A DNA stretch of 64,000 nucleotides from Escherichia phage phiWec188. The notes beneath the pieces are model-generated. The model did not search any database, was not told the DNA's origin, and saw only the letters and a program-made list of their open reading frames with translations. This document shows, one piece after another, positions 9,068 through 37,000 of this stretch. The stretch is taken from sequence record LC739537.1. The stretch is one strand, 5' to 3'. How positions within the stretch are numbered: position 1 is the stretch's first letter; the number at the start of each line of letters is the position of its first letter. A program made the position numbers and the translations under genes.

Positions 9068-9277
9068 ATGAAAAAGACAATTGTGGCGTTACTGTTGGCA
9101 ACAAGTTTCTCGGCAGCGGCTGGACAAACTACTCTCATTCTTTCGGATGAGGAAGTTAGCGGCAATACTAAATATTGTTTCTATTCCAACTCCATCTACG
9201 ACAAAGTTATCCAGATCTCTGCGAGTCGGCAATGTCCTTACACAAAAACATTCAGTACGGATGATGACGATGAATAA
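9068..9277 (+). CDS. small secreted protein with signal peptide (69 aa)
   Basis: MKKTIVALLLATSFSAAAGQ signal-peptide-like N-terminus; AGGAGG RBS; internal start of ORF 9020..9277. Confidence 0.55.
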   Translation: MKKTIVALLLATSFSAAAGQTTLILSDEEVSGNTKYCFYSNSIYDKVIQISASRQCPYTKTFSTDDDDE

Positions 9278-9321
9278 TAGGGGGAATTATCAGCGGGTAC
9301 ATTTTAATAAAACCGGAAGAT

Positions 9322-10413
9322 TTGCACAAGTATGTTGACCTAAACACTGTTGTGGTTATCGATTATGACCAAGTGGCTTTCCAAGCAGCTTCTGCTGTAG
9401 AGAAGCGTCGTATATTGGCTAAACATGCAGCCTCCGGTTCCGAAAAAGAATTTGACAATAAGACAGAGTTTTGGGGTAAGAGTAAAACTGAAATTGGTGG
9501 TTGGCTTGGAGCATTGAATGCTAAACGAGAAGAGCAGGGTAAACGTCCTTTCACCAAAGAAGAGTTTGAAATTGTCGATGTGCAGTACGTACCAGACACT
9601 TTGTCACATGCTTTTCAAGCAGCTAAAACAAAAGTTCAAGCGATCTTAAAGCATTTAAGTTTAGAAAAATATTGCGGGGTTATTGGTGTAGGGAAAACCT
9701 TCCGACATGATTTTAAGATGCCTACCGAGTATAAATCTGAACGATCTGACATTAAGCCTTTACAACTATCCGATACCAAAGACTACTTGGTAGAGCAACA
9801 CAATGGGGATGTTGTTACGGTTATCGAAGCCGATGATGAATTAGAGAAGTACGGTTTCCAAGGTTACAAAGATTACAAACGCACAGGAAAATTCTCTTAC
9901 ATCCTGGCGTCAATAGATAAAGACAGCCTATCCACTCCAAGCATCCTCTTTAACTTCTACAAAGAAGACGGTGTATTCAAGAATCCAGATATCATCTTGA
10001 TAGACGAGTCCATCGGAGACTTGTGGATTGTTGAAAAGGGCAAGAAAAAAGAGGTGAAGGGTTGGGGATCTTTCTGGTTGGCCTATCAGATGCTGATGGG
10101 AGATAAAACGGATAGCATCCGTCCTTACCAGGATTTTGGTATTAAGTTTGGAGACGTTTCTTGCTTCAACTTGATATCTGAATGCAAGACCCAAGCTGAA
10201 CTTTTCCAGAAAGTGAAAGATACATTTTATACCTGGTTCCCTGAAGGTGTTAAATTTACATCTTGGGATCGGGAAGCAGTAGAATTAACAACCGATCAAT
10301 GGATCGAGACAATATTCCAACTTGTTTACATGAAGCGTTGGGATAACGATAACACAACTTTTGAGAGTATGCTTCAAGCGTACATTTCACAACAGGAGAC
10401 AATTAATGAGTAA
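9322..10413 (+). CDS. 5'-3' exonuclease / flap endonuclease, T4 RNase H-like (363 aa)
   Basis: N-terminal VVIDYDQVAFQAASA, GKTFRHDF and ILASIDKDSL segments parallel T4 RNase H (LIDFSQIAL, SGYWRRDF, ILIISSDGDF); probable TTG start. Confidence 0.6.
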   Translation: MHKYVDLNTVVVIDYDQVAFQAASAVEKRRILAKHAASGSEKEFDNKTEFWGKSKTEIGGWLGALNAKREEQGKRPFTKEEFEIVDVQYVPDTLSHAFQAAKTKVQAILKHLSLEKYCGVIGVGKTFRHDFKMPTEYKSERSDIKPLQLSDTKDYLVEQHNGDVVTVIEADDELEKYGFQGYKDYKRTGKFSYILASIDKDSLSTPSILFNFYKEDGVFKNPDIILIDESIGDLWIVEKGKKKEVKGWGSFWLAYQMLMGDKTDSIRPYQDFGIKFGDVSCFNLISECKTQAELFQKVKDTFYTWFPEGVKFTSWDREAVELTTDQWIETIFQLVYMKRWDNDNTTFESMLQAYISQQETINE

Positions 10414-11371
10414 ATTAACAACAGAGCAGAAAGTAGAAATCATTAGCCTTAAAACACAAGGTCTTTCTTCTCGCCAGATCGCTGCATTAGTTCTCGGTAG
10501 CGCGACAAAGAAAAGTACAGTGAACGATTTCTTGGTTCGTGAAAACTCTGCCAACGCTGGAACTCCTAAAGTTAAACCAGAAGGTCCAGTAGTTAAAATT
10601 ATTGACGTTGAAACAGCACCAGAAATTGCGTATACTTTCCGTCGATTCAAAGCTTTTATCTCTCCTGATCAGGTGATTCGCCGTGGTTACTTGTTGTCCT
10701 ACTCTTCCGCAGATCTGCGTACTGCTGAAGTTGAAGGTAAGAACTTGGCAAGCTACCCTCTGTTCGATATTGATCACACAGACGATTGGGAACTGTGCCA
10801 AGACATTTGGAAGCTTCTGGATGAAGCTGATATCGTTGTAGCTCACAACGGTGTTAAATTTGACCGTGCTTATATTAACCAGCGTTTCGCATACCACGGA
10901 ATGGTTCCTCCATCGAACTATGTTGTGGTCGATACTCTGAAAGCAGCTAAGAAACAATTCTTCTTACCATCTAATTCTCTGAAAGAGATGGGTGCTTACT
11001 TTGAAACAGAGAGCGAAAAACTTGATAACGAAGGGTTCCCGTTGTGGAAGGCTTGTTGTGAAGGTGATCGTGATGCGTTTGAACGTATGCAAACTTACAA
11101 CGATGGTGATGTAGTTTCTCTGCGAGATCTGTACATTAAGATTCTGGCGTGGATTCCGCAACATCCTAACGTATCTGCTTACTACGAAGATACTAAAGTT
11201 CGTTGCTCTCGTTGTGGCAGTGCACATGTGAATGTACTGGCAGATAAGAAGTACCACACAGCAGTAAGTTCTTTTGATATTATTCGTTGTGAAGATTGTG
11301 GTGGACTTTCTCGTGGACGTGTTAACAGCCGTTCCAAAGATAAGATGAAAAATACCATTGTCGGGATTTAA
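10406..11371 (+). CDS. DnaQ-like (DEDD) 3'-5' exonuclease with N-terminal HTH and C-terminal Cys4 element (321 aa)
   Basis: Exo I IIDVETAPE, Exo II VVAHNGVKFD, Exo III YNDGD motifs; CSRCG...CEDCGG zinc-ribbon; AGGAGA RBS, ATGA-type overlap. Confidence 0.55.
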   Translation: MSKLTTEQKVEIISLKTQGLSSRQIAALVLGSATKKSTVNDFLVRENSANAGTPKVKPEGPVVKIIDVETAPEIAYTFRRFKAFISPDQVIRRGYLLSYSSADLRTAEVEGKNLASYPLFDIDHTDDWELCQDIWKLLDEADIVVAHNGVKFDRAYINQRFAYHGMVPPSNYVVVDTLKAAKKQFFLPSNSLKEMGAYFETESEKLDNEGFPLWKACCEGDRDAFERMQTYNDGDVVSLRDLYIKILAWIPQHPNVSAYYEDTKVRCSRCGSAHVNVLADKKYHTAVSSFDIIRCEDCGGLSRGRVNSRSKDKMKNTIVGI

Positions 11372-11373
11372 TA

Positions 11374-11400
11374 AGAAAGGGGCTTCGGCCCCTTTTTTCA
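11374..11400 (+). terminator. rho-independent terminator (GGGGC-TTCG-GCCCC + TTTTTT)
   Basis: perfect 5-bp GC stem, tetraloop, 6-T run right after stop; coordinates approximate. Confidence 0.65.
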
Positions 11401-11407
11401 TTTAAGT

Positions 11408-11438
11408 GTTGACACAGAGAACTAATTGCGATACAATC
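11408..11438 (+). promoter_or_regulatory. sigma70-type promoter TTGACA-N17-TACAAT
   Basis: consensus -35, 17-nt spacer, good -10, about 45 nt upstream of ATG 11481. Confidence 0.5.
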
Positions 11439-11480
11439 TTTATCAACAAGGCATACCGCCTTAAACAAGAGGAGACTATC

Positions 11481-11939
11481 ATGAGTAAGAATATTATTGT
11501 TTTTCGTAACGCTGCTGATTTCCGTAATTATGCCGCAGAATCTGGTCGTAACAATGCAGCCCGTGCTTTGTATCGTCAGTTCTTACGTTTAAATAATCTG
11601 GACCGTAACGAGCTAATCCAGGATTCCTCTGGTTTGACAGTAGGGAAAGATAACCGTCAACAGGTACTTATCGGAGGTTGCCTGTACGGTGTGTCTGTGA
11701 ACGATAAAGGTGATTGCCGTCAGTACGACAGTGACTATGTTGGTCTGATTAATATCTCCCCGACTACGGGCAGAGTTCTACTGGCATTCACTAACGATTT
11801 GTCTTTACACAAGAAACCAAACTTGATCCGCACAAAAGGAAACAATGCATCTTATAACGCTGCTCTTAGCGAAGATGCTTCTGTAGAGCTTGAAAACTTT
11901 AAAATCTGGGATAATACCACTCCAGAACAAAATTACTAA
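11481..11939 (+). CDS. hypothetical protein (152 aa)
   Basis: internal ATG of ORF 11406..11939 preceded by AAGAGGAGA; ORF-track N-terminus would overlap the promoter. Confidence 0.55.
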   Translation: MSKNIIVFRNAADFRNYAAESGRNNAARALYRQFLRLNNLDRNELIQDSSGLTVGKDNRQQVLIGGCLYGVSVNDKGDCRQYDSDYVGLINISPTTGRVLLAFTNDLSLHKKPNLIRTKGNNASYNAALSEDASVELENFKIWDNTTPEQNY

Positions 11940-13347: not shown

Positions 13348-13965
13348 ATGAAGATAGTTTGTGATTGGGATCTGGTGGTTGCTCCACTGGATGTTGCTTG
13401 GCTGGAATGGTTGGTTAAAGTTAGCGGAGATTGTGTAGGCTTCTGCGGAGCTGTCAAAAATGTTGACTACGATCTTACTAAATACTTCCCAGGTTTCCGT
13501 GAGAAGTTTAACATCGATCCTTACGGCTTTCTGGATAATTCCCATCTCTACGATACAATGGGATGTATCAAACCTATGGCTAACTTCTTAGAAGGTGTTG
13601 TGAAAGAGGGAGATAATGCACTTATTGCAAGTGTGACTAAAGGTGGACACCTTAGCTCAAAACACAAACATGTTTTAAGAACTTTGCCAACCATCGATTT
13701 TGGTAAAGGTTCTGGTAATGGTTTCTTTGCCACAAAAGAAAAATACCTGTTGCCTTGTGATATTGCCATAGATGACAGGGCAGAAAACCTGTTGTATTTT
13801 CCAGACCATGTTGTTAAGATTTACTACAATACGATGTATAAAGATTTGTATTTGGAAGAATTAAAAAAGAAACCAAATGTAGTTGTCACAGGTTTGTACA
13901 ATCAAGCAGAAACCTGTTGGCAAGTTTATTCAATGTTAAAAGAACGAGGAGAAATTAATGTCTAA
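13348..13965 (+). CDS. HAD-superfamily 5'(3')-deoxyribonucleotidase-like protein (205 aa)
   Basis: N-terminal VCDWDLVV (HAD motif I DxDxV) and C-terminal AIDDR (motif IV); GGAGAGGAGGG RBS. Confidence 0.4.
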   Translation: MKIVCDWDLVVAPLDVAWLEWLVKVSGDCVGFCGAVKNVDYDLTKYFPGFREKFNIDPYGFLDNSHLYDTMGCIKPMANFLEGVVKEGDNALIASVTKGGHLSSKHKHVLRTLPTIDFGKGSGNGFFATKEKYLLPCDIAIDDRAENLLYFPDHVVKIYYNTMYKDLYLEELKKKPNVVVTGLYNQAETCWQVYSMLKERGEINV

Positions 13966-14953
13966 TATCAGTGCACAAGTCATCGCCCAGTCTATGAACG
14001 CAGAAGGGCAAGTGATTACAACTTTCGAACTGGAATACCCACGTATCATCCATTCTGAGTTGATGACGCACCGCTTATTCTCCCGCAACGCGGCTTCAAG
14101 CCGTGCTATTCCGGTGAAGACCCTGATTGAAATGGTTCGCAAAGAACCTGCTGCACCTGTTCGTTTTGGTCAACACCAACCTGGGATGCAGGATCAAGGC
14201 GTAGAATATGATGCTCTTATTGGGGCAGGTTACTCAGGTCGTGAGTGGTGGAATTTAGCTGCGCTTAGTGCAGCAAACTTTGCAGAACAAATGGCGGAAG
14301 CTGGTTACGCGAAGCAGGTTTGTAATCGCCTTCTTGAACCATTCCAGAGAATGAAGACGGTTCTGACAGCAACCGAGTATGAAAACTTCTGGTGGCTACG
14401 TGATGACGCTGATGCTGATCCGACTATTGAAGCTTTAGCTAAAGTTATGTTTGAAGCTTATGAAGCCTCTACTCCAGAACTGCTGGCTCCAGGACAATGG
14501 CATACGCCTTACGTAGATCACGTCTACGAGAACATCGGTCTGGAAGGTGATGATGTTTTGGTATTCGCTGGGTATAGCACTACAGATGAAAATGGTGATA
14601 CTGTCATGCTGTCGCTGGAAGAAGCACTTGCAATCTCTTCTTCTTGTTGCGCACAAGTGAGCTATCGTCGTCTGAATGCAACTAAAGATAAAGCTTTGGA
14701 TATCTACGGACGTTTGCTTACTGGTCGTAAAGTCCACGCTTCTCCGTTTGAACATCAAGCTACACCTATGCAAGCAACCTTGGAACTTCTTGGTGAGAAT
14801 TCGTCTGAAGATATTCTTATTAACGTTCCGTGGTATGCAGCTTCTTGGGAAGTAGGTATTACTCACAGCGATCGTAACGAAAAACTGTGGTCTGGAAATT
14901 TCAAAGGATTTATCCAGCACCGTCAGCTTTTAAATAATCATACTAAATGGTGA
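13958..14953 (+). CDS. thyX: FAD-dependent thymidylate synthase ThyX-like (331 aa)
   Basis: ThyX-type signature segment HSELMTHRLFSRNAASSRAIP (RHR...S..R-like) near N-terminus; size appropriate; located in nucleotide-metabolism cluster. Confidence 0.7.
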   Translation: MSNISAQVIAQSMNAEGQVITTFELEYPRIIHSELMTHRLFSRNAASSRAIPVKTLIEMVRKEPAAPVRFGQHQPGMQDQGVEYDALIGAGYSGREWWNLAALSAANFAEQMAEAGYAKQVCNRLLEPFQRMKTVLTATEYENFWWLRDDADADPTIEALAKVMFEAYEASTPELLAPGQWHTPYVDHVYENIGLEGDDVLVFAGYSTTDENGDTVMLSLEEALAISSSCCAQVSYRRLNATKDKALDIYGRLLTGRKVHASPFEHQATPMQATLELLGENSSEDILINVPWYAASWEVGITHSDRNEKLWSGNFKGFIQHRQLLNNHTKW

Positions 14954-15730: not shown

Positions 15731-17971
15731 GTGATTCGATACGTTACTAAATCAAATGGCAAGACAGAAGAGTTTAATCCTGAAAAACTGCGTAAATGGT
15801 CTGAATTTGCAGCAGGGAAACTGAACTGGTCGGAAATTGAATTAGAAGCTGTGAAACGTTGTTACGATGGGGTGTCTACTCGTGATTTACATAAAGCTAT
15901 GATCGCCGCATGTATTGACAAAAAGACTCAAGCGTATAGCGACATGGCAGGTCGATTGCTTCTCGGTATGATTTACAAACAGGCTCACGGGGGATACCAC
16001 AGTATCCCTTCCCTGTACACCTTCTACCAGGATATGGTGAAGCGTGGACATTGGGCTAAGATGGATTATACCGAAGAAGAAATCAAAGAGATTGGTAAGA
16101 TTGTCAAACACAACAAGAATCTAACCTACGGTTATTCCGTTCTTCGTCAGATGGCAGATAAATACCTGGTTCGTGATGCTGTGAATGATGTTGTTCATGA
16201 GTCACCGCAATTCCTGTTTATTGGTGTGGCAATGCGTGTTATGGAGATCCAGCCTAAAGATCGTCGTATTGACGATATCAAAAAGCTGTACACATATGTA
16301 AGTGATCTTCAGATTAACTTACCATCTCCATATCTGACAACGTTACGTACTCCGATCAAGGGTAGCGCGTCTTGTTGTTTATTCCGTGCAGACGATACAG
16401 CAGAGTCTTTGGCTATTGCAAACTATTTGGCACACGAATACACGTTAAATAATGCAGGGATTGGTGTTAACCTCCAGACCCGTGCAACGGGACAGGGTGT
16501 TAAGAACAACCGTATCATTCATGGTGGTCTTCTCCCTTACCTGAAGTGGATGGAAGATAGTGTAGGAGCTTCTAAACAAGCGAGTCGTGGTGGTAGTGCA
16601 ACGGTTACGTTCACAATCTTGGAGCCAGATTTTGAAGATCTGATTCGACTGAAGAACCCAACCACTCCGATCGATAAGCGTGTTGATAAGCTGGATTATT
16701 CTGTTGTTGTAAACCGCTCCTTCCTTCGCCGTGCTGCTAAAGGTGAAGAGTGGATGCTTGTGAGTTGTGACGAAGCACCGGAACTTTACGAAGCACTGTA
16801 CAAAAGTGAAGAAGAGTTCGATGCTGTCTACGATAAAGTTAGTCGCCGTCGCATCAAAAAGAAAATTGTTAAGGCTCGTGACCTGTTGACTGAAATCATT
16901 GTTCAACGTGCAGAGACTGGACGTATTTATATGTTCTTCGCTGACAACGTAAACAATCACACTCCTTTCCTGGATACCGTGTATCAGTCGAACTTATGTC
17001 AGGAGATCTTTTTACCTACTAAAGCGTTCCATAAAATGACGGATCTCTTTACTGGTGAAAACACAGAAGATCAAGAATTGGCTTTATGCTTCTTGTCCTC
17101 TATCGTTGCTGGGCGAGTTACGCCGGAGCAATACGAAGATGTTGCGTACTACACTGTATTGACGATTGATAACGTTATTGAGACGATGGAATACCCATTC
17201 AAACATAACGAGATCACAGCTAAGGCTCGCCGCTCTATTGGCGTAGGTATTACAAACCTTGCACATTATCTGGCAAGCAACTTTGTAACCTATTCTGATC
17301 CTTATGCGAAGAAGCTGATGCATGAATTAGCAGAACGTCATTACTTCTGGTTGGCACAAGCCTCTCTGCGCTTGGCGAAAGAGAAAGGTAATGCCGAGTG
17401 GATGGATAAAACTAAGTGGCCTCAAGGTTGGCTCCCTATTGACACCTACGCTAAAGCAGTAGATACTATTGGGGACTTTGAACTGAAGCTGGATTGGGAA
17501 GGCTTACGTGCTGGTATCATTGAACAAGGCGGTATCCGTAACAGTGTGCTTGCAGCAGTGGCCCCGAACGAATCAAGTAGCTTGGTGAGTAACACTACCA
17601 ACTCACTCTACCCTGTACGTGACACGATCATGTACAAACAGAGTCAGAAAGGTAACGTACTGTTTATCGTACCGGATTACGAAAAACTGAAAATGTTCTA
17701 TCAGTCGGCGTGGGATACCCCGTCTAAAGATATTGCCGAGATGTACGGACTCTTCACTAAGTTTACGGATCAGGGTATCTCCTGTGATGCTTGGTTGGAT
17801 TATTCCAAAATGGAAGGTGGACGTTTATCAGTGAAAGCCGAGATGCAATTTATCTTGACATTTGCAAAGCTTGGTGGTAAATCTCTTTACTACCTGAACA
17901 GCCGAACCAAATCAGCAGAATCTATGGCCCAAGAAGATTCTGACGGTGGTTGTGAAGCTTGTAAAATGTAG
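15731..17971 (+). CDS. nrdA: ribonucleoside-diphosphate reductase class Ia alpha subunit (746 aa), GTG start
   Basis: N-terminal ATP-cone (VTKSNGKTEEFNPEKL), catalytic-site segments incl. SNLCQEI and C-terminal CxxC tail; AGGGAGGAG RBS. Confidence 0.95.
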   Translation: MIRYVTKSNGKTEEFNPEKLRKWSEFAAGKLNWSEIELEAVKRCYDGVSTRDLHKAMIAACIDKKTQAYSDMAGRLLLGMIYKQAHGGYHSIPSLYTFYQDMVKRGHWAKMDYTEEEIKEIGKIVKHNKNLTYGYSVLRQMADKYLVRDAVNDVVHESPQFLFIGVAMRVMEIQPKDRRIDDIKKLYTYVSDLQINLPSPYLTTLRTPIKGSASCCLFRADDTAESLAIANYLAHEYTLNNAGIGVNLQTRATGQGVKNNRIIHGGLLPYLKWMEDSVGASKQASRGGSATVTFTILEPDFEDLIRLKNPTTPIDKRVDKLDYSVVVNRSFLRRAAKGEEWMLVSCDEAPELYEALYKSEEEFDAVYDKVSRRRIKKKIVKARDLLTEIIVQRAETGRIYMFFADNVNNHTPFLDTVYQSNLCQEIFLPTKAFHKMTDLFTGENTEDQELALCFLSSIVAGRVTPEQYEDVAYYTVLTIDNVIETMEYPFKHNEITAKARRSIGVGITNLAHYLASNFVTYSDPYAKKLMHELAERHYFWLAQASLRLAKEKGNAEWMDKTKWPQGWLPIDTYAKAVDTIGDFELKLDWEGLRAGIIEQGGIRNSVLAAVAPNESSSLVSNTTNSLYPVRDTIMYKQSQKGNVLFIVPDYEKLKMFYQSAWDTPSKDIAEMYGLFTKFTDQGISCDAWLDYSKMEGGRLSVKAEMQFILTFAKLGGKSLYYLNSRTKSAESMAQEDSDGGCEACKM

Positions 17972-17975
17972 CAAT

Positions 17976-18000
17976 ATAGGGGCTTCGGCCCCTTTTTATT
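17976..18000 (+). terminator. rho-independent terminator (GGGGC-TTCG-GCCCC + TTTTTATT)
   Basis: identical stem-loop to terminator at 11.38 kb; follows nrdA stop. Confidence 0.6.
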
Positions 18001-18010
18001 GAGGAGGATT

Positions 18011-18349
18011 ATGAGCACACTTATAGTTTTACCTGGAGTAACCCCAATCTACCGACCTGGGTTTAAGCCTCTGTTGATTCGCCCTGAAGATTTTACCCCT
18101 ACTTGGTGTCACCATTATCTTGGTGGTCTTGAAATAGCTAACATGCAGATTTGGGAATCTTTTTATCCAGAAGCCACGGCTTACGCAATAACAAGGGCAA
18201 GAAGTGAAGAAACAGTGACTGTTATACTTGGTAGAAGCGTATGGGAAGCACTGGAAGCTTTCTACCGGAGCAATGATTTTGAGGAAGAAGATATTTTAAG
18301 CTTAAGAGGTTTTTGTGAAATAGTGGAGGATTTAAATGGCAGCAATTAA
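18011..18349 (+). CDS. hypothetical protein between nrdA and nrdB (112 aa)
   Basis: GAGGAGGA RBS at internal ATG of ORF 17999..18349. Confidence 0.5.
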   Translation: MSTLIVLPGVTPIYRPGFKPLLIRPEDFTPTWCHHYLGGLEIANMQIWESFYPEATAYAITRARSEETVTVILGRSVWEALEAFYRSNDFEEEDILSLRGFCEIVEDLNGSN

Positions 18350-19421
18350 TTTACATAACGAGACTTACAAAACAGGTAAATATCCAGTTTTCATGGGGGA
18401 ACAGTTGGGGATTTTTGATTCTATCAACGTGACTTACCCTGAAATGCACCGTCTGTATAAACTCCAGAAAGCCCAAGATTGGGATGAGAATGAAGTGGAT
18501 CTTAGTCAGACCCGTAAAGACTTTGTAGCGTGTTCAAAAAACAACTACGATGTTATGATCAAGAACTTGTCGTTCCAGTGGGAGAATGATTCCCTGGCAA
18601 AATCAATCATCACTTTGTTCTCTCCGTTTTTGAGCAACAATGAAGCTTGCGCTATGATGATGAAGCAGAGTGAAATGGAAGTGCTTCATGCTCTAACTTA
18701 CTCGGAGATCGTTCGCCAGTGTACTCCAAACCCTGTAGAAGTTATTGATCAGATTATGGAGAACGATAAGATCTTCAACCGTATGGGTATCATTGCAGAG
18801 ATCATGGGAGATTTGGAAGAAGCAGGTCACAAATATGCACTTGGTCTGATTGAAGCTGATGATAAACTACGTTTGCTGGTCATGAAAGGTCTGGTAGCCC
18901 TGATTGGTCTGGAAGGTATCCAGTTTATCTCTTCTTTCTCGGCAACGTTCGCCTTGGCAGAACAGCAACTGTTTGTAGGTGCTTGTAAACTGATTCAGAA
19001 AATCATGTTGGATGAAATCCTGCATGTTAAAATGGACTATGCTGTCATTGATGCTCTGATGCAAGATCCTGTGTGGAAGAAGATCTACGAAGATAACATC
19101 GAAGAACTTACAACTATTCTGGATACAGTTATCGCTCAAGAAGAGCAGTGGTGTGATTATCTGTTTAGTGAAGGACGTTTTATCGTTGGGCTGAATGCTG
19201 AACTATCCCGTCAATGGGTGTACTTCAATGCGGCTCCAATTTATCGTCGTCTGAAGATGAAGCACAGCTTTAAATCTCCTAAACAGAACCCACTACCTTG
19301 GATGGACATTTGGTTAAACCCAGATCAGATTCAAGCAGCGGCGCAAGAGATCCAGGTTACAGCTTATAAACTGAACTCGGCTAACAAAGATGTTTCTGAT
19401 GATATGGAGTTTGACTTTTAA
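18336..19421 (+). CDS. nrdB: ribonucleoside-diphosphate reductase class Ia beta subunit (361 aa)
   Basis: R2-type ferritin-like helices with conserved E/H iron ligands, adjacent to nrdA; GGAGGA RBS. Confidence 0.9.
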   Translation: MAAINLHNETYKTGKYPVFMGEQLGIFDSINVTYPEMHRLYKLQKAQDWDENEVDLSQTRKDFVACSKNNYDVMIKNLSFQWENDSLAKSIITLFSPFLSNNEACAMMMKQSEMEVLHALTYSEIVRQCTPNPVEVIDQIMENDKIFNRMGIIAEIMGDLEEAGHKYALGLIEADDKLRLLVMKGLVALIGLEGIQFISSFSATFALAEQQLFVGACKLIQKIMLDEILHVKMDYAVIDALMQDPVWKKIYEDNIEELTTILDTVIAQEEQWCDYLFSEGRFIVGLNAELSRQWVYFNAAPIYRRLKMKHSFKSPKQNPLPWMDIWLNPDQIQAAAQEIQVTAYKLNSANKDVSDDMEFDF

Positions 19422-20100: not shown

Positions 20101-20298
20101 ATGAAAGACCAAATGATTAATGGACCTCGTGTAACAGTTAGTCCTAAAACTTTTGCATCTCTTCTGGACGACACTGGTGAGGTTTATACTTACACAAGAG
20201 ATTCACTGCCTCTGCCTGAAAGTGCACAGGGTTCACGTTCGCTTTTTTATAAAGGTGTTCTTTTTACGGAAGCAAAAGAAGACAAGGAGACTAAATGA
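20101..20298 (+). CDS. hypothetical protein (65 aa)
   Basis: TAAGGAGA RBS. Confidence 0.5.
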   Translation: MKDQMINGPRVTVSPKTFASLLDDTGEVYTYTRDSLPLPESAQGSRSLFYKGVLFTEAKEDKETK

Positions 20299-21287
20299 GA
20301 TACCTGGTAACAGGTGGTCTTGGTTTCATTGGGAGCGCCGTAGTGCGCTCTCTTTGTCAAGATCCTAAAAATGAAGTTTTTGTTATTGATAAAATGGGCT
20401 ATGCTGCTGACATTGAAAATGTCGGAGATATTACTCATGCGAAACTAAGCATGACAGATCTGGTCGATGAAGCACAAGTTAAAAACTTGGTTGTTGAGTG
20501 TAACCCTGATTTCATCATTCACTTGGCAGCAGAGAGTCATGTAGACAATTCGATCAAGAATCCACGAGCTTTTATCGACTCTAACATCATCGGTACATAT
20601 AATCTGTTAGAAGCTGCAAGGCTTCTTCCTAAGAACAAGCTGAAGATGTTTGTACACGTCTCTACAGACGAAGTGTACGGCGATATGGAGGACTCTGGTG
20701 CTCCCTTTACCGAAGAGACAGCTTATGCTCCTTCAAGCCCATACAGCGCGTCTAAGGCGGCATCTGATCACCTTGTCAAAGCTTGGCACCGTACTTACGA
20801 TTTACCTGTAGTGATAACCAACTGTTCCAATAACTTTGGGCCTTACCAACACCCTGAAAAATTGATTCCAAAAGTGATCACGAACATCTTGACAGACCAA
20901 CCTATTCCCGTATACGGTAAAGGCGATCAGGTACGAGATTGGCTTTTCGTAGAAGATCATGCACGAGCTATTATTTTGGCAGCAACGGGCGGGGAAGTAG
21001 GACAAACCTACAACGTAGGTACACGCAATCCTAAAACAAACATGGAAATCATTTACATGATTTGTGATTACATGGATGCTGTTCACCCATCCTTCGGGAC
21101 ATACCCTGCTTCCGGTTTGATTAGTTTTGTTGAAGATCGTAAAGGTCATGACTTGCATTATGAAATCAATCCTGCTAAGATTGAATCTGAACTGGGTTGG
21201 AAAGCAAACTCTACATTCGAAGAAGACTTGTACTCTACGATTGAATGGTATTTAAATAATCCTCAATGGTGGAGTATGAAGATTTAA
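20295..21287 (+). CDS. rmlB: dTDP-glucose 4,6-dehydratase (330 aa)
   Basis: N-terminal Rossmann GGLGFIGS, catalytic YSASK (YxxxK), SDR extended family; first gene of 4-gene rml cluster. Confidence 0.85.
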
Positions 21288-21295
21288 GGAGGGTT

Positions 21296-22174
21296 ATGAA
21301 AGGTATTATTTTAGCGGGAGGAAGTGGAACCCGCCTACATCCTGTAACACGCAGTGTGAGCAAGCAATTGCTCCCTGTGTATGACAAACCTATGATTTAT
21401 TATCCTTTATCAGTCTTGATGTTGTCAGATATTAAGGATATCTTAATCATCACAACCCCAGGCGATCAGGAAGATTTTGAGTATCTTCTTGGAGATGGGT
21501 CTATGTTTGGAATAAAGATCACTTACGCAATGCAGTCTGAACCACGAGGTCTTGCAGATGCTTTCATCATCGGTAAAGATTTTATTGGGGAAGATTCTGT
21601 TGCTCTTATTTTAGGGGATAACTTGTTCTTCGGACAAAGTTTCGGAAAACTCCTTATCCAAGCCAGCGAAATGGTGGATGTTTGGGGTGGAGCTTGTATC
21701 TTCGGGTATCTGGTGAAAGATCCTGAACGATTCGGTGTTGTTGAGTTTGGAAGTAATCGCCAAGCTATCTCTATTGAAGAGAAACCGGAACATCCCAAAT
21801 CAGACTATGCAGTCACGGGTTTGTATTTCTATGACAACTCTGTTGTTCAACGTGCATTGGAAGTAACTCCTTCCGATCGTGGAGAACTGGAGATCACAGA
21901 TATCAATCGCAGCTACCTCGAAGACAGGAAGTTACAAGTGGAAGTTCTTGGAAGAGGATTCACTTGGTTGGATACAGGGACACACGCCAGTCTAATGGAA
22001 GCAGGTCAATTCGTGCAGACTATTGAGAACTGCCAAGGATTGAAGATTGCGTGCCTGGAAGAGATTGCTTTCAAAAAAGGGTGGATTTCTTTAGAGACTT
22101 TGGTGTATCATGGCAACTCATTGAAGAAAACAGAGTACGGGCAATATCTGTTAAAATTAGCGGAGGGTAAATGA
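21296..22174 (+). CDS. rmlA: glucose-1-phosphate thymidylyltransferase (292 aa)
   Basis: [16 protein letters not shown]...[18 protein letters not shown] signature of RmlA; TAAGGAGGG RBS. Confidence 0.9.
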
Positions 22175-22731
22175 AAATAAAAGAATTAAGTATTCCTGGT
22201 CTGGTTGTCTTTAAACCTCAAGTTTACAAAGATGATCGTGGTTCCTTCACGGAGACGTTTAACGAGAAGATTTACGAAGAGGTTATTGGCAAACAAACGT
22301 TTGTTCAGGATAACCATTCATTCTCTACTTTAGGTGTTCTTCGCGGAATGCACTTTCAAGTAAATAACCCGCAAGGTAAGCTTGTACGTTGCACACGAGG
22401 TGAAGTTTTTGACGTGGCTGTAGATCTTCGTGAAGGTAGTCCAACCTTCGGACAATGGGAAGGTGTGATTCTTAGTGGGTGTAACAATAAACAGTTGTGG
22501 ATTCCACCTGGCTTTGCACATGGTTTTGTTGTAACCTCTTATGAAGCCAACTTTGAATACAAGTGCACCAACTACTACGATCCGGCATCTGAACGTAGTT
22601 TGTTGTGGAACGATCCTACTGTGAATATTGATTGGGGTTTTGATATGATTTTCAATGATGAGAATTTTGTACCCATCATTTCGGAAAAGGATGCACAAGC
22701 TAAAACACTGAAGGAGCTTATGGGATCATGA
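22171..22731 (+). CDS. rmlC: dTDP-4-dehydrorhamnose 3,5-epimerase (186 aa)
   Basis: cupin-fold RmlC segments ([21 protein letters not shown]), ATGA overlap with rmlA. Confidence 0.85.
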
Positions 22732-23570
22732 AAACATATTTAGTATTGGGTGGTAATGGTCAATTAGGTCAGGCACTGCGTAAAGTGGTGCCGGAGAATG
22801 TGACTTTGGTGTATCCAGAAAAGCGTGTAGATATCACCAGTTTTGAAGCTGTGCGGAAAGCGATCATGGAAACCCCAAATATTAACGGTGTTATCAACTG
22901 TGCGGCATACACTGCTGTGGACAAAGCCGAGACAGATGTTGATGCAGCTATGGCTGTAAATTTACACGGGGCAGCTAATATTGCTGCCTTCTGTAAGGCT
23001 TGGGATATTGACATGGTGCATATTTCTACTGACTATGTGTTCAACAGCGATAAACCGTTGTTCCATCAGGATGAACCCAACCCTATCAATGTTTACGGGT
23101 TATCTAAAAGTTTGGGTGAAGCTGCTGTTCGTGGTATCTACCATAAAGCTTTTATTATCCGCACGGCTTCTGTGTATAGCGAGTTTGGTAACAACTTCCT
23201 GAAGACTATGGTATCTCGTTACAACGATGGTCAAAGAAACTTCTCGGTAGTTGCAGATCAAACATCTCGACCAACTTATGCCCCAGATTTGGCTAAGATG
23301 ATTTTCCAAGTGTTGGAAACAGGATATAACACCCGTACTTTGCATTACGCTGGGAACATCACTGTTTCGTGGCACCAGTTCGCAAAAATGATATTGACAC
23401 GTATGCCTGAATCTGTTATTATACACCCGACCTCTGCTGCAACCTATAATTCGGCAGCGATGCGACCAGCAAAGTCTATACTAATTACGTCTGGTTGGAA
23501 CGAACCTTCAAGCGTCGGACAAGGTATTGAAGAATCTTTAGCAGTATTACTTAATAAGGAGAGAGCATGA
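22728..23570 (+). CDS. rmlD: dTDP-4-dehydrorhamnose reductase (280 aa)
   Basis: N-terminal GGNGQLG Rossmann motif, ISTDYVF segment; follows rmlC with ATGA overlap. Confidence 0.8.
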   Translation: MKTYLVLGGNGQLGQALRKVVPENVTLVYPEKRVDITSFEAVRKAIMETPNINGVINCAAYTAVDKAETDVDAAMAVNLHGAANIAAFCKAWDIDMVHISTDYVFNSDKPLFHQDEPNPINVYGLSKSLGEAAVRGIYHKAFIIRTASVYSEFGNNFLKTMVSRYNDGQRNFSVVADQTSRPTYAPDLAKMIFQVLETGYNTRTLHYAGNITVSWHQFAKMILTRMPESVIIHPTSAATYNSAAMRPAKSILITSGWNEPSSVGQGIEESLAVLLNKERA

Positions 23571-23827
23571 ATTTTGTAATTTACGGCAAACCAAATTGCC
23601 AGTTCTGTGAAATGTCCAAACAACTCTTAACTATGCGTGAAAAAGAGTTTGAATATCTGACATTAGATCAAGATTATGATTTTGAAGTGATGACTCAAGC
23701 AGTGATCGCAGCAACAGGAATTGCACCTCGCACCTTCCCGCAGATCTTTGTGGAAGAGCTTGGAGCAGTAACCCACGTAGGCGGTTTTACCGAACTGCGT
23801 GATTTCATGGCTCAAATTGCGGAGTAA
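23567..23827 (+). CDS. glutaredoxin / NrdH-like redoxin (86 aa)
   Basis: CQFC active site, TFPQIFV and GG motifs of the glutaredoxin fold. Confidence 0.75.
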   Translation: MNFVIYGKPNCQFCEMSKQLLTMREKEFEYLTLDQDYDFEVMTQAVIAATGIAPRTFPQIFVEELGAVTHVGGFTELRDFMAQIAE

Positions 23828-26551: not shown

Positions 26552-26989
26552 ATGTTGAACGTTCCTGTTAAATTCGTCGATAGCTGTGTTAATGCTTACC
26601 AACAAACTTGTAAACGTGCCTCAAACTGTTTGCAGTCTTTGATTCAAACGCGGTACGTGATCCAAAAGAAAAGAAAGTGGTTTGGTAAGGATTCTTATAG
26701 TGTTAATGCGTTCGGGGAGTATCAACTCCAGTATGACGATAACATGCAACACATCTTAGAGTTTTTACTGATAAAAGATAAAATCTCCCCTGCGGATTAC
26801 CAGTTACTTAAATTCTACGATCAGAGTTTGTCTATTGAGGAAGTTATTCAAGATATCCTTTCTCGTAAGACAGATAAGAACACTGTTGGTATTACAAACT
26901 TAGAGATGCAATTGCTCAATGAGATCTTTTTGTTTGTGGAAGATGAGTCTGTAACTAAGGAGGAGCTTTTAAATGGCTTTAAGCTATGA
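26552..26989 (+). CDS. hypothetical protein (145 aa)
   Basis: GAGGAGA RBS. Confidence 0.5.
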   Translation: MLNVPVKFVDSCVNAYQQTCKRASNCLQSLIQTRYVIQKKRKWFGKDSYSVNAFGEYQLQYDDNMQHILEFLLIKDKISPADYQLLKFYDQSLSIEEVIQDILSRKTDKNTVGITNLEMQLLNEIFLFVEDESVTKEELLNGFKL

Positions 26990-27481
26990 TCGTCCAGAGT
27001 CCGATTACTATCCGACTCCGCAAAAAGCGATTAACTCGTTATTTAGCATTATTGATTTTAAAAATTTGAAAGAGGAAGGATTTACATTTGCAGAACCGTG
27101 TAGAGGACAAGCAGCGGCTATTTACCGTCACTTTCCTGAAGGTTCTCAGTATTGTGAGCTTGAAGAAGGTAAAGATTATTTTAGTCACGTATGGGAAAAT
27201 CGTCCCGACATTATAATCACGAATCCTCCATTCAAGCTGGCATTAGAGTTCTTGGAAAAGAGCTTGAAAGAAGCAGACGTGTCAGTCTACCTGCTTCGCC
27301 TGGGATTCCTTGAGTCAAAGAAACGTCGAGCGTTTCATCAAGAAAACCCCCTACGAATTTGATTGTACTCTCCGAACGTCCTTCGTTCGTAGCAGGTGGA
27401 ACAGATAAGACAGCGTATGCTTGGTACGTATACGATCCAAAACAAATTTTGGGTCTAACTCAACCATTTTATTTCGTTTAA
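26973..27481 (+). CDS. phage Dam-like N6-adenine DNA methyltransferase, interrupted by a -1 frame change at an A4C5 tract (about 27343-27351)
   Basis: frame 1 (26973..27362) carries YYPTP and IIITNPPF (motif IV-like); downstream -1 frame continues ...SERPSFVAGGTDKTAYAWYVYDP to a stop at about 27481; junction at GAAAACCCCC (heptamer A_AAC_CCC). Confidence 0.45.
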
Positions 27482-35550: not shown

Positions 35551-36338
35551 TAGTGATCAGCGGCGCTGGTCTAAGCGCCGATAGCGGTGTACAAACATTC
35601 CGTACAGAAACAGAGAGTGGAAAAGCATTATGGGACGAGTACGATTTAGAGGAGGTTTGTAATATTGGGGCATTCCAGGCAGGTTATCGTAGACGTACAT
35701 GTCCCGATTTACCTGTTATCGGAGGTGAGGATGAGGAAGGATACAACCTCTACAACAAGACCCATGATTTCTATAACAAGCGTCGTATAGAGTTGGATAA
35801 TATAGATCCAAACGCTGCACATCGTCTGATTGCTCGTTTATACTCAGAGTATGGCGCTGATCGTATTTTAAACATTACCACTAACGTAGACGATCTTTTG
35901 GAACGTGCTGGTGTTGTTCACGAAGATGTTCTGCATGTGCATGGCTACCTACCAGAAATTGTAGTGGATCGGAAGTTTATTAAAGAAATCGGTTATGCAA
36001 GTGTGGATGTGGATAAGTACGATTACGTGAAACCTAACGTTGTCTTCTTCGGGGAATCTGCTCCGCTGTACACAGAGATGTACCATATGCTCGATAATCT
36101 CACATCTCAGGATATGGTGATTGTTGTAGGTTGCTCTAATCAAGTGATCAACTTCAACTGGGAGTTGTTCCCAGCCCTCAATACAGGAACAAAGATGGTC
36201 GTAGTTAATCCTGGGGTTAATTACGAAGAAACACTTCTCTATGAAGATCGTGGAGTTTTTGTTTACCGAGAAAAAGCTGCAACAGCCTTCAGTAATGAAG
36301 GTTTCATTAAAATGATCGAAGACCACTTAAACAAATAA
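35535..36338 (+). CDS. SIR2-family (sirtuin-like) NAD-binding protein (267 aa)
   Basis: GAGLSADSGVQTFR (GAGxSxxSGIxxFR), TTNVDDLLERAG (TQNIDxLHxxAG), HG and VVFFGES motifs of Sir2 domain; canonical Cys4 Zn module not evident. Confidence 0.6.
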   Translation: MPRRLIVISGAGLSADSGVQTFRTETESGKALWDEYDLEEVCNIGAFQAGYRRRTCPDLPVIGGEDEEGYNLYNKTHDFYNKRRIELDNIDPNAAHRLIARLYSEYGADRILNITTNVDDLLERAGVVHEDVLHVHGYLPEIVVDRKFIKEIGYASVDVDKYDYVKPNVVFFGESAPLYTEMYHMLDNLTSQDMVIVVGCSNQVINFNWELFPALNTGTKMVVVNPGVNYEETLLYEDRGVFVYREKAATAFSNEGFIKMIEDHLNK

Positions 36339-36343
36339 ACCAA

Positions 36344-36369
36344 CCAAGGGGCTACGGCCCCTTTCTTAT
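36344..36369 (+). terminator. rho-independent terminator (GGGGC-TACG-GCCCC + TTTCTT)
   Basis: stem-loop after SIR2-like gene. Confidence 0.5.
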
Positions 36370-36381
36370 TAGGAGATTACT

Positions 36382-36654
36382 ATGCAACAAGAAACTTTCG
36401 ATTTTTATCTCGCCAATTATGTCTACTACTTCTCTAATGGTACACAGAAAGGGGAAGGCAATCTTTACTTGGCTACCAACACTGGAGCAGGTGTTCGTAA
36501 AGCCAATATTGATTTAGCAAGAGAAACAGTTCGTTCTGGACTGGAAGAGACGCTTGAAACTCCAGTTGTTGTGGTTATACAAACTATCAGTTACCTTGCA
36601 ACCTGTACTAAAGAGGATTTTGAGGCTCCTCAAACGCAATCTAACGAAGCATAA
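36382..36654 (+). CDS. hypothetical protein (90 aa), last + strand gene
   Basis: TAGGAGA RBS. Confidence 0.5.
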   Translation: MQQETFDFYLANYVYYFSNGTQKGEGNLYLATNTGAGVRKANIDLARETVRSGLEETLETPVVVVIQTISYLATCTKEDFEAPQTQSNEA

Positions 36655-36688
36655 AAGAAAGGCACCCACTTGGGTGCCTTTTCTATTT
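36653..36688. terminator. bidirectional terminator at convergence of + and - transcription (AAAAGAAA-GGCACCCA-CTTG-GGTGCC-TTTTCTATTT)
   Basis: perfect hairpin flanked by A-run on one side and T-run on the other. Confidence 0.65.
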
Positions 36689-36723
36689 GAGAGCGTCTCT
36701 GTGCGATTTAAGGGGGTTCTCGG

Positions 36724-36954
36724 CTATTTGTGAAGTGCTCTCTCGTACAACTCGATAATCAACTCGTCTTCGGCAGTAATACGGGCCATTTGATCTGTCT
36801 TCAGGATTGCTGGTTGGTAATGATGCATTTCACTGCTCAAGATACACTCCCACTCATCTTCCCCTACTCTCTCACCTACGTGAATCTTCACAGGATACCA
36901 GAAAGGATTGTCCACCAGGAATGCCATACAACCTTCTTCGATTTTGCTCAACAT
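36724..36954 (-). CDS. hypothetical protein (76 aa)
   Basis: AAAGGAGA RBS on minus strand. Confidence 0.5.
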   Translation of the reverse strand: MLSKIEEGCMAFLVDNPFWYPVKIHVGERVGEDEWECILSSEMHHYQPAILKTDQMARITAEDELIIELYERALHK

Positions 36955-36977
36955 AGTAATCTCCTTTGTTCAGATAT

Positions 36978-37000
36978 GAAAAAACCCGCCGAAGCGGGTT
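36978..37000 (-). terminator. minus-strand hairpin AACCCGC-TTCG-GCGGGTT + TTTTTT (terminator-like, downstream of candidate promoter at about 37020-37048)
   Basis: hairpin + U6 on minus strand between genes 37045..37329 and 36724..36954; preceded on minus strand by TTGACA-N17-GATACT. Confidence 0.45.

Follow-up and report, generated by a model that had tools for sequence, protein, structure and literature searches.

The 64,000 nucleotides of Escherichia phage phiWec188 analysed here (sequence record LC739537.1; this whole stretch is referred to as the window) hold, on the plus strand, four consecutive genes for the biosynthesis of dTDP-L-rhamnose (dTDP, deoxythymidine diphosphate). These are rmlB, encoding a dTDP-D-glucose 4,6-dehydratase of 330 amino acids (20295..21287; TIGR01181), rmlA, encoding a glucose-1-phosphate thymidylyltransferase of 292 amino acids (21296..22174; TIGR01207), rmlC, encoding a dTDP-4-dehydrorhamnose 3,5-epimerase of 186 amino acids (22171..22731; TIGR01221), and rmlD, encoding a dTDP-4-dehydrorhamnose reductase of 280 amino acids (22728..23570; TIGR01214). 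The succession had been recognized in a preliminary description of the sequence, and the open reading frame (ORF) listing and the family scores agree in bearing it out. The operon is flanked on the same strand by an ORF of 65 amino acids (20101..20298; PHROG 27883), found also in phage phi92 (gp068) and missing from phage ESCO5, and by a gene for a glutaredoxin-like protein of 86 amino acids (grx; 23567..23827; PF00462, with the motif C11QFC14). Overlaps of 4 nucleotides (ATGA) join stop to start at four junctions, namely 65-residue ORF/rmlB, rmlA/rmlC, rmlC/rmlD and rmlD/grx, so that the earlier characterization of the genes as translationally coupled is apt for most of them; it does not extend to rmlB/rmlA, where a gap of 8 nucleotides holds a strong Shine-Dalgarno sequence. 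Because this AAGGAGG lies 5 nucleotides before the ATG at 21296, translation of rmlA is assigned to that start, and the longer ORF from 21266 is considered unlikely.

Family membership was decided by score against the curated NCBIfam equivalog cut-offs, all of which are exceeded: RmlB reaches 429 bits (TIGR01181 cut-off, 365), RmlA 464 bits (TIGR01207, 361), RmlC 244 bits (TIGR01221, 156) and RmlD 245 bits (TIGR01214, 224). Each protein aligns from end to end with biochemically characterized enzymes of known structure, RmlB with Salmonella enterica RmlB (1g1a; E 4e-112), RmlA with the enzyme in PDB 4ho0 (E 9e-123) and with Escherichia coli RffH (1mc3; E 5e-118), RmlC with Pseudomonas aeruginosa RmlC (PDB 2ixi; E 6e-61) and RmlD with Bacillus anthracis RmlD (PDB 3sc6; E 1e-49). 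The active sites are intact. RmlB displays the NAD-binding GxxGxxG motif of the short-chain dehydrogenase/reductase Rossmann fold (G7GLGFIG) together with T124-D125-E126 and the YxxxK motif (Y150SASK154). RmlA has G8GSGTRL and the catalytic or metal-binding lysines and aspartates K23, D108 (in GDN), K163 (in EKP) and D226 (in DTGT). Alignment places H61, K70, Y130 and D174 of RmlC at the catalytic histidine, lysine, tyrosine and aspartate of the P. aeruginosa enzyme, and RmlD combines a GxxGxxG motif (G8GNGQLG) with the Thr-Tyr-Lys triad made up of T101 and Y123GLSK127. These catalytic motifs are invariant across the orthologues from phi92, ESCO5, ESCO37 and KP13-26. Pairwise ratios of nonsynonymous to synonymous substitution (dN/dS) are between 0.04 and 0.30 wherever dS is unsaturated (0.05 for rmlB in comparison with ESCO5), and all four genes are thus, as judged from codon comparison, under purifying selection. 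Catalytically dead enzymes, named at the outset as a finding that would speak against a working pathway, were looked for by structure alignment, motif inspection and dN/dS and were not encountered; a decaying relic is ruled out on the same grounds. The pathway, as initially proposed, is complete and apparently functional.

The bacterial systems (rfbBDAC of E. coli and Salmonella, rmlBDAC of P. aeruginosa) are made up of these four enzyme families too, share their catalytic residues and have the same predicted product, dTDP-L-rhamnose, yet the phage genes differ in their order (B-A-C-D), in lying outside an O-antigen or capsule cluster and in having no rhamnosyltransferase, flippase or polymerase adjacent to them. 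Several observations show the operon to be old and phage-resident. The rml segment is 100% identical to that of Escherichia phage phiWec190 (LC739539.1; Phapecoctavirus, Stephanstirmvirinae), and the block is common to 126 phage records in which it occupies the same genomic position. Its GC content, overall and at third codon positions (GC3), agrees with that of the adjacent genes. Among 5,426 complete E. coli genomes, the best match covers no more than 35% of the query at 64-66% nucleotide identity, and the host genes run rfbB-D-A-C as compared to B-A-C-D in the phage. With respect to the enterobacterial genes, phage rmlB and rmlA are about 65% identical in nucleotide sequence, and phage RmlD is nearest to Bacteroidota and Firmicutes types; a search covering about 185,000 prokaryotic species, with one genome per species, found the closest cellular RmlD proteins exclusively in Bacteroidota, at 37-44% identity.

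Among 50,697 phage records, homologues of RmlC were found in 169, about 131 of which belong to this one subfamily, in line with the original remark that a full dTDP-sugar pathway is uncommon in phages. About 130 related phage genomes carry the operon. In phi92, phAPEC8, ESCO5 and other Stephanstirmvirinae it has the arrangement seen here, with B-A-C-D placed between nrdB and the glutaredoxin gene and followed by lysozyme and PhoH genes. Two sets of records in this group bear unexpected host names: 'Pseudomonas phage PsgM04F' (OR584014.1), with 94% nucleotide identity over the rml block, and the 'Campylobacter phages' B15, A150 and A110a (MG065650.1, MG065639.1 and MG065689.1), with about 81%, are Stephanstirmvirinae genomes, and their host labels look doubtful; they may represent contaminating coliphages. 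The operon is not new. The phiWec190 record and that of phi92 (gp067-gp064) already annotate its genes, which have also been discussed in print, by Olsen 2020 (PMC7552041), who put forward the idea of DNA glycosylation, and by Maffei 2021 (PMC8594841), who noted a putative dTDP glycosylation machinery in phages that were yet exceptionally sensitive to restriction-modification (RM). Our literature search returned nothing past genome descriptions, and neither functional work on the pathway nor glycosylated virions were found for this phage group.

The two halves of the pathway differ in their distribution. ESCO37, previously described as being without rmlA and rmlB (PMC10269720), and the Klebsiella phage KP13-26, also of the Stephanstirmvirinae, contain only rmlC and rmlD, with nrdB and small ORFs before them and grx after them, while rmlB and rmlA are absent. 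The pair rmlC-rmlD thus forms the conserved core of the operon. In E. coli, blastn at about 65% identity, a level at which sensitivity qualifies both counts, found DNA similar to rmlB-rmlA in 5,406 of 5,426 genomes, with many of the matches located at about 4.6-4.9 Mb, the site of the enterobacterial common antigen (ECA) cluster, and DNA similar to rmlC-rmlD in 1,481 of the 5,426, always as rfbC at the O-antigen locus. RffH and RffG are paralogues of RmlA and RmlB that serve ECA synthesis in all Enterobacterales, and dTDP-4-keto-6-deoxyglucose is the branch point common to the ECA (rff) and the rml pathways. That some relatives hold only rmlC-rmlD is therefore understood from the capacity of E. 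coli RffH and RffG to perform the first two steps, RmlC and RmlD being present only in some serotypes. With the first two steps redundant in the host and the last two not, the product under selection is suggested to be dTDP-L-rhamnose itself. The operon is, in addition, a mosaic. Comparison of phiWec190 with ESCO5 gives amino acid identities of 89% for NrdB, 90% for RmlB and 97% for RmlA, then 64% for RmlC, 66% for RmlD and 74% for Grx, and again 86% for both lysozyme and PhoH. With identity falling between 22171 and 23827, the clade of phiWec190 has had its rmlC-rmlD(-grx) segment replaced by a recombinant allele. This divergent clade comprises phiWec190, phiWec179, phiWec181, phiWec186 and PsgM04F, and its rmlC-rmlD products have 64-67% amino acid identity to every other lineage; the phiWec190-type RmlC is about equally distant (64-68% identical) from the alleles of ESCO5, phi92 and KP13-26. 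At least four rmlC-rmlD alleles exist within the subfamily.

The preliminary description saw no glycosyltransferase (GT) in the window, and none is listed for the equivalent stretch of the PHROG-annotated genome of PsgM04F. It proposed that such enzymes be sought in the rest of the genome, and this search revealed four of them, adjacent to one another, beyond the limits of the window and separated from rml by about 70-80 kb. In PsgM04F (94% identical), the four genes are annotated as 'glycosyltransferase' and are situated between an endolysin gene and the genes for primase/helicase and DNA polymerase I. Their counterparts in phiWec190 are four ORFs (LC739539.1, 91206-94346) deposited as hypothetical proteins, which match PHROG glycosyltransferase families with E values from 1e-74 to 1e-138. 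GT1 and GT2 are paralogues (42% identical) with a weak match to Pfam Glyco_trans_1_2; GT3, of 227 amino acids, contains an invariant F-D-D-D motif of the DxD kind; GT4 has 187 amino acids and no Pfam match. Hydrophobic segments are absent from all four. Both GT3 and GT1 fall into small families (17 and 35 clusters, respectively, in a database of 5.8 billion proteins) that are essentially confined to phage-like contigs. A separate observation was made on a 51-kb metagenomic contig (Joint Genome Institute metagenome 3300005614), phage-like and unrelated to the present phages, in which genes of the Glycos_transf_2, GT2-like (39% identity) and GT4-like (37% identity) types follow one another at 9276-11546, adjoining genes for a single-stranded DNA-binding protein, a helicase and an AAA_25 protein. 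Since the pair of GT2-like and GT4-like genes recurs in this unrelated contig, the multi-GT module appears to be mobile among phages.

Structure prediction assigns the enzymes to recognizable folds. The AlphaFold models are confident. That of GT3 (predicted local distance difference test, pLDDT, 87) has a minimal GT-A fold whose best PDB match is glycosyltransferase A197 of the archaeal virus STIV (Sulfolobus turreted icosahedral virus); GT-A enzymes of the collagen, mucin-type and other classes come next, and template modeling scores (TM-scores) are only 0.4-0.5. For GT1, the model (pLDDT 94) suggests a GT-B fold like that of the GT4 enzyme family, with GlgM, MshA, BshA, PglA, WaaG, TarM and PimB' as structural neighbours and the protein-glycan enzymes Gtf3, GtfC and SdgB also among the predicted matches. 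Neither the alpha- nor the beta-glucosyltransferase acting on T4 DNA is among the top 50 fold matches of GT1, and comparison of the GT1 and GT4 sequences with those of the PDB gave no match even at E ≤ 1. The fold matches of GT3 and GT1 do not discriminate the class of acceptor.

Record counts and organism breakdowns together show that the rml genes and the GT cluster are co-distributed. At an identity of 60% or more, RmlC was found in 131 of the 50,697 phage records and GT3 in 126, to which Klebsiella relatives are added at about 35% identity. Broken down by organism, the two sets are nearly identical, and KP13-26 has both genes.

The rml genes lie within a block of nucleotide metabolism, as had been stated from the start, with genes for NrdA, NrdB, a ThyX-family protein and a MazG-like pyrophosphohydrolase located upstream. 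The class Ia ribonucleotide reductase is encoded on the plus strand by nrdA (15731-17971) and nrdB (18336-19421), with a small ORF between them. The thymidylate synthase of the ThyX family (13958-14953; 331 amino acids; PF02511, 36.9 bits) is divergent and C-terminally extended, having a THRxxSxxxxSxR motif in which THR replaces RHR; it scores above the Pfam Thy1 cut-off and below that of TIGR02170 and is taken, from its sequence, as a probable ordinary ThyX. An NT5C-like protein is also encoded upstream. Downstream of grx are an ORF of 49 amino acids and the lysozyme and PhoH genes indicated in the earlier description, here identified by their matches to PF00959 (phage lysozyme of family GH24) and PF02562. 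Grx itself scores 41.8 bits against a PF00462 threshold of 22.9, with its CxxC motif conserved in five lineages; it stays under every NCBIfam glutaredoxin cut-off, so that its subfamily is left undefined. In the phi92 record, NrdB matches gp139 and the glutaredoxin gp063 matches gp141 of PVP-SE1, one of the Vequintavirinae without rml. Because nrdB and grx are almost adjacent in PVP-SE1, the rml genes are understood as an insertion into an nrdAB-grx arrangement. The glutaredoxin, rightly placed after the rml genes in the preliminary description, is thus outside the sugar pathway and ancestrally part of the nrd module, where it probably acts as the reductant for phage NrdAB. A scan for promoters and terminators between 15 and 26 kb gave counts no higher than in shuffled controls. 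The sole convincing terminator-like site in this interval is a G+C-rich hairpin (AGGGGCTTCGGCCCCT) with a T-run at 17978-17993, directly after nrdA, which may act as a transcriptional attenuator separating nrdA from the stretch that runs from nrdB to the rml genes. Further along the window, at approximately 36000-37000, the sign of the GC skew is reversed and, at about 36.6 kb, coding passes from the plus to the minus strand, marking the border of two divergent gene blocks. At about 27347, within the ORF 26973-27362, a C homopolymer has one nucleotide fewer than in LC739539.1 (C5 here, C6 there), which shortens a DNA-methyltransferase-like ORF to 129 from 169 amino acids; a sequencing error is one possible cause, a frameshift that is natural or phase-variable another. 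The window is accordingly not an exact copy of that record.

On the collective evidence, we consider it reasonably probable, though well short of assured, that the phage carries a functional dTDP-L-rhamnose pathway of its own, that the sugar finds its most probable users in the phage's own four GTs, and that virion proteins are the favoured acceptor. To proceed as proposed, RmlA would convert dTTP and glucose-1-phosphate into dTDP-glucose, RmlB would transform the latter into dTDP-4-keto-6-deoxyglucose, and RmlC together with RmlD would complete the synthesis of dTDP-L-rhamnose. Inserted between nrdB and grx, the rml genes would be read with the ribonucleotide-reductase module, among genes that supply dTTP, and the infected cell would make dTDP-L-rhamnose whatever the serotype of the host. 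The four soluble GTs, encoded beside replication genes, would then build a rhamnose-containing glycan. A precedent for such self-sufficiency exists in giant viruses, with Mimivirus using a UDP-L-rhamnose pathway for the glycosylation of its fibrils. These viruses likewise combine their own deoxysugar-nucleotide pathway with their own GTs for host-independent glycosylation, but the nucleotide carrier is UDP, the enzymes are different and the host is eukaryotic.

Of the acceptors put forward initially (the phage's own DNA, virion proteins and host surface polysaccharide), self-DNA emerges as least likely, on account of RM sensitivity and the absence of a base-hydroxymethylating enzyme, and the other two are retained. 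Virion structural proteins are our tentative choice, held with less than even confidence. They are mildly favoured by GTs that are soluble and would be cytoplasmic, by a genome in which no export machinery is encoded and by the viral origin of the best predicted fold match of GT3. An acceptor of some other kind is possible, if rather doubtful. There is some likeness to the mycobacteriophages of the genus Cheoctovirus (cluster F1, with Che8), in which GT3 has about 231 tblastn matches. Capsid glycosylation has been demonstrated in Cheoctovirus according to Freeman et al. 2023, as cited through PMC11256854. Common to both groups are phage-encoded soluble GTs located outside the structural module, and in many Cheoctovirus genomes the GT of the right-end locus contains a GT3-like GT-A domain. 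They differ in that the mycobacteriophages lack an rml operon and take their nucleotide sugars from the host, and for the Stephanstirmvirinae the literature search found no glycosylated virion protein. Orthology of GT3 to the GTs of Che8 virion glycosylation was considered and rejected: blastp and profile searches of GT1-GT4 against gp108-110 gave nothing significant, and the Che8 proteins are not detectably similar.

A number of points weigh against the proposed scenario and moderate its strength. Shared ancestry within one subfamily could give the co-distribution of rml and GT genes without functional coupling. The two loci are 70-80 kb apart, and use of the dTDP-sugar by the GTs is presumed. 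The fold matches of the GTs reach TM-scores of only 0.4-0.6, and some of them, PglA, WaaG, MshA and BshA among others, are enzymes with lipid or small-molecule substrates. As regards Cheoctovirus, GT3 matches only a domain of an alternative GT of 478 amino acids (BuzzLyseyear gp108) encoded at the same right-end locus, at 23-25% identity; with GT3 lacking significant similarity to Che8 gp108-110, the virion-protein idea is weak. Lipid-linked acceptors are compatible with GTs lacking transmembrane segments. The blastn counts in E. coli, obtained at about 65% identity, underestimate divergent alleles of rfbC and rfbD. Lastly, we found no report measuring enzyme activity, sugar product or glycoconjugate in this phage group.

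Remodelling of the host envelope is the alternative that survives best, and we regard it as unlikely without being implausible. The soluble GTs would, on the inner side of the membrane, add rhamnose-containing units to lipid-linked envelope glycans of the host, that is, undecaprenyl-linked intermediates of ECA, O-antigen or lipopolysaccharide (LPS) core, and host flippases and ligases would export the products; the receptor would be masked in consequence, with the effect that superinfecting phages are excluded or progeny are kept off debris. The idea gains from the predicted structural neighbours of GT1, among which PglA, WaaG, PimB' and TarM use lipid- or polymer-linked acceptors without spanning the membrane. 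RmlC and RmlD would, given the established rff and rml pathways, divert the ECA precursor dTDP-4-keto-6-deoxyglucose, and phages of this group recognize surface glycans that include ECA and LPS core (PMC8594841). Against these points stands the genome annotation, in which neither priming transferase nor flippase, polymerase or ligase is encoded. The phages are moreover strictly lytic, which leaves a short time for surface remodelling, while the known seroconversion systems (GtrABC and O-acetylases) are membrane proteins of temperate phages, and no published account of changed LPS or ECA during infection was found.

Rhamnosylation of the phage's own DNA is improbable. It would have one or more of the GTs transfer L-rhamnose from its dTDP carrier to a modified base, in a T4-like manner, enabling evasion of host nucleases; the idea is that of Olsen 2020. 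The location of rml between nrdB and grx and that of the GTs beside primase/helicase and DNA polymerase I is in its favour, and the T4 system of hydroxymethylcytosine (HMC) glucosylation resembles the present one in having sugar-transfer genes among the genes of DNA metabolism. The N-terminal part of GT3 furthermore shows weak matches to the PHROG of the T-even beta-glucosyl-HMC alpha-glucosyltransferase (E 3e-7) and, below threshold, to Pfam TAGT (E 0.002); these are confined to the generic region of the GT-A fold that binds nucleotide sugars, and T4 DNA glucosyltransferases are outside the top 50 predicted fold matches of GT1. T4 takes its UDP-glucose from the host and does not itself synthesize a sugar nucleotide. 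Counting against the idea, the phi92-like relatives in which rml and GT3 occur together are 'exceptionally susceptible' to RM systems of types I, II and III (PMC8594841), whereas T4 is not RM-sensitive. The search for DNA-modification enzymes across the genome, recommended in the preliminary description, was performed on the whole-genome annotation of PsgM04F, the 94%-identical relative, and no base-hydroxymethylating enzyme is annotated there: ThyA-type dCMP/dUMP hydroxymethylase, dCTPase, dNMP kinase and TET/JBP do not appear genome-wide (T4, by comparison, has both hydroxymethylase and dCTPase), and the sole thymidylate synthase belongs to the ThyX family. Bulk DNA glycosylation is thus unlikely. 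A previously unknown hypermodification, placing L-rhamnose or a rhamnose oligosaccharide on DNA sparsely or sequence-specifically at sites unprobed by the RM systems tested, is slightly less probable still; its donor would be the dTDP-sugar that the phage makes itself, and its transferases those of GT-A and GT-B type encoded next to the replisome genes.

A host origin of the segment, be it through chimeric assembly, transduction or a very recent capture, or its being a decaying relic without function, as might be thought from the typical place of Rml genes in bacterial O-antigen loci and from the dispensability of rmlB and rmlA in ESCO37, can practically be dismissed, the check for host origin having turned up an identical block position in 126 independently sequenced phage genomes, a composition like that of the flanking genes, a best E. 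coli match of only about 65% identity in another gene order and an RmlD at most 44% identical to the nearest cellular protein, all this with invariant catalytic motifs and dN/dS of 0.04-0.30.

As a find, the operon is ordinary; it is annotated in GenBank for this phage and has been mentioned in publications from the phi92 genome (2012) to the papers of 2020-2021. What appears worth pursuing is the use that a strictly lytic coliphage makes of its own supply of deoxysugar, and the question has become more testable with the current analysis. The probable users of the sugar are identified in a conserved cluster of four GTs, and ESCO37 and KP13-26 are recognized as natural variants without rmlB and rmlA, for which dependence on host RffH and RffG is predicted. 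Were the virion the acceptor, these phages would represent a glycan-coated group of coliphages equipped with a sugar-nucleotide pathway of their own. If true, this would bear on phage therapy, through antibody recognition and pharmacokinetics, since Phapecoctavirus and phi92-like phages are often proposed as therapeutics.

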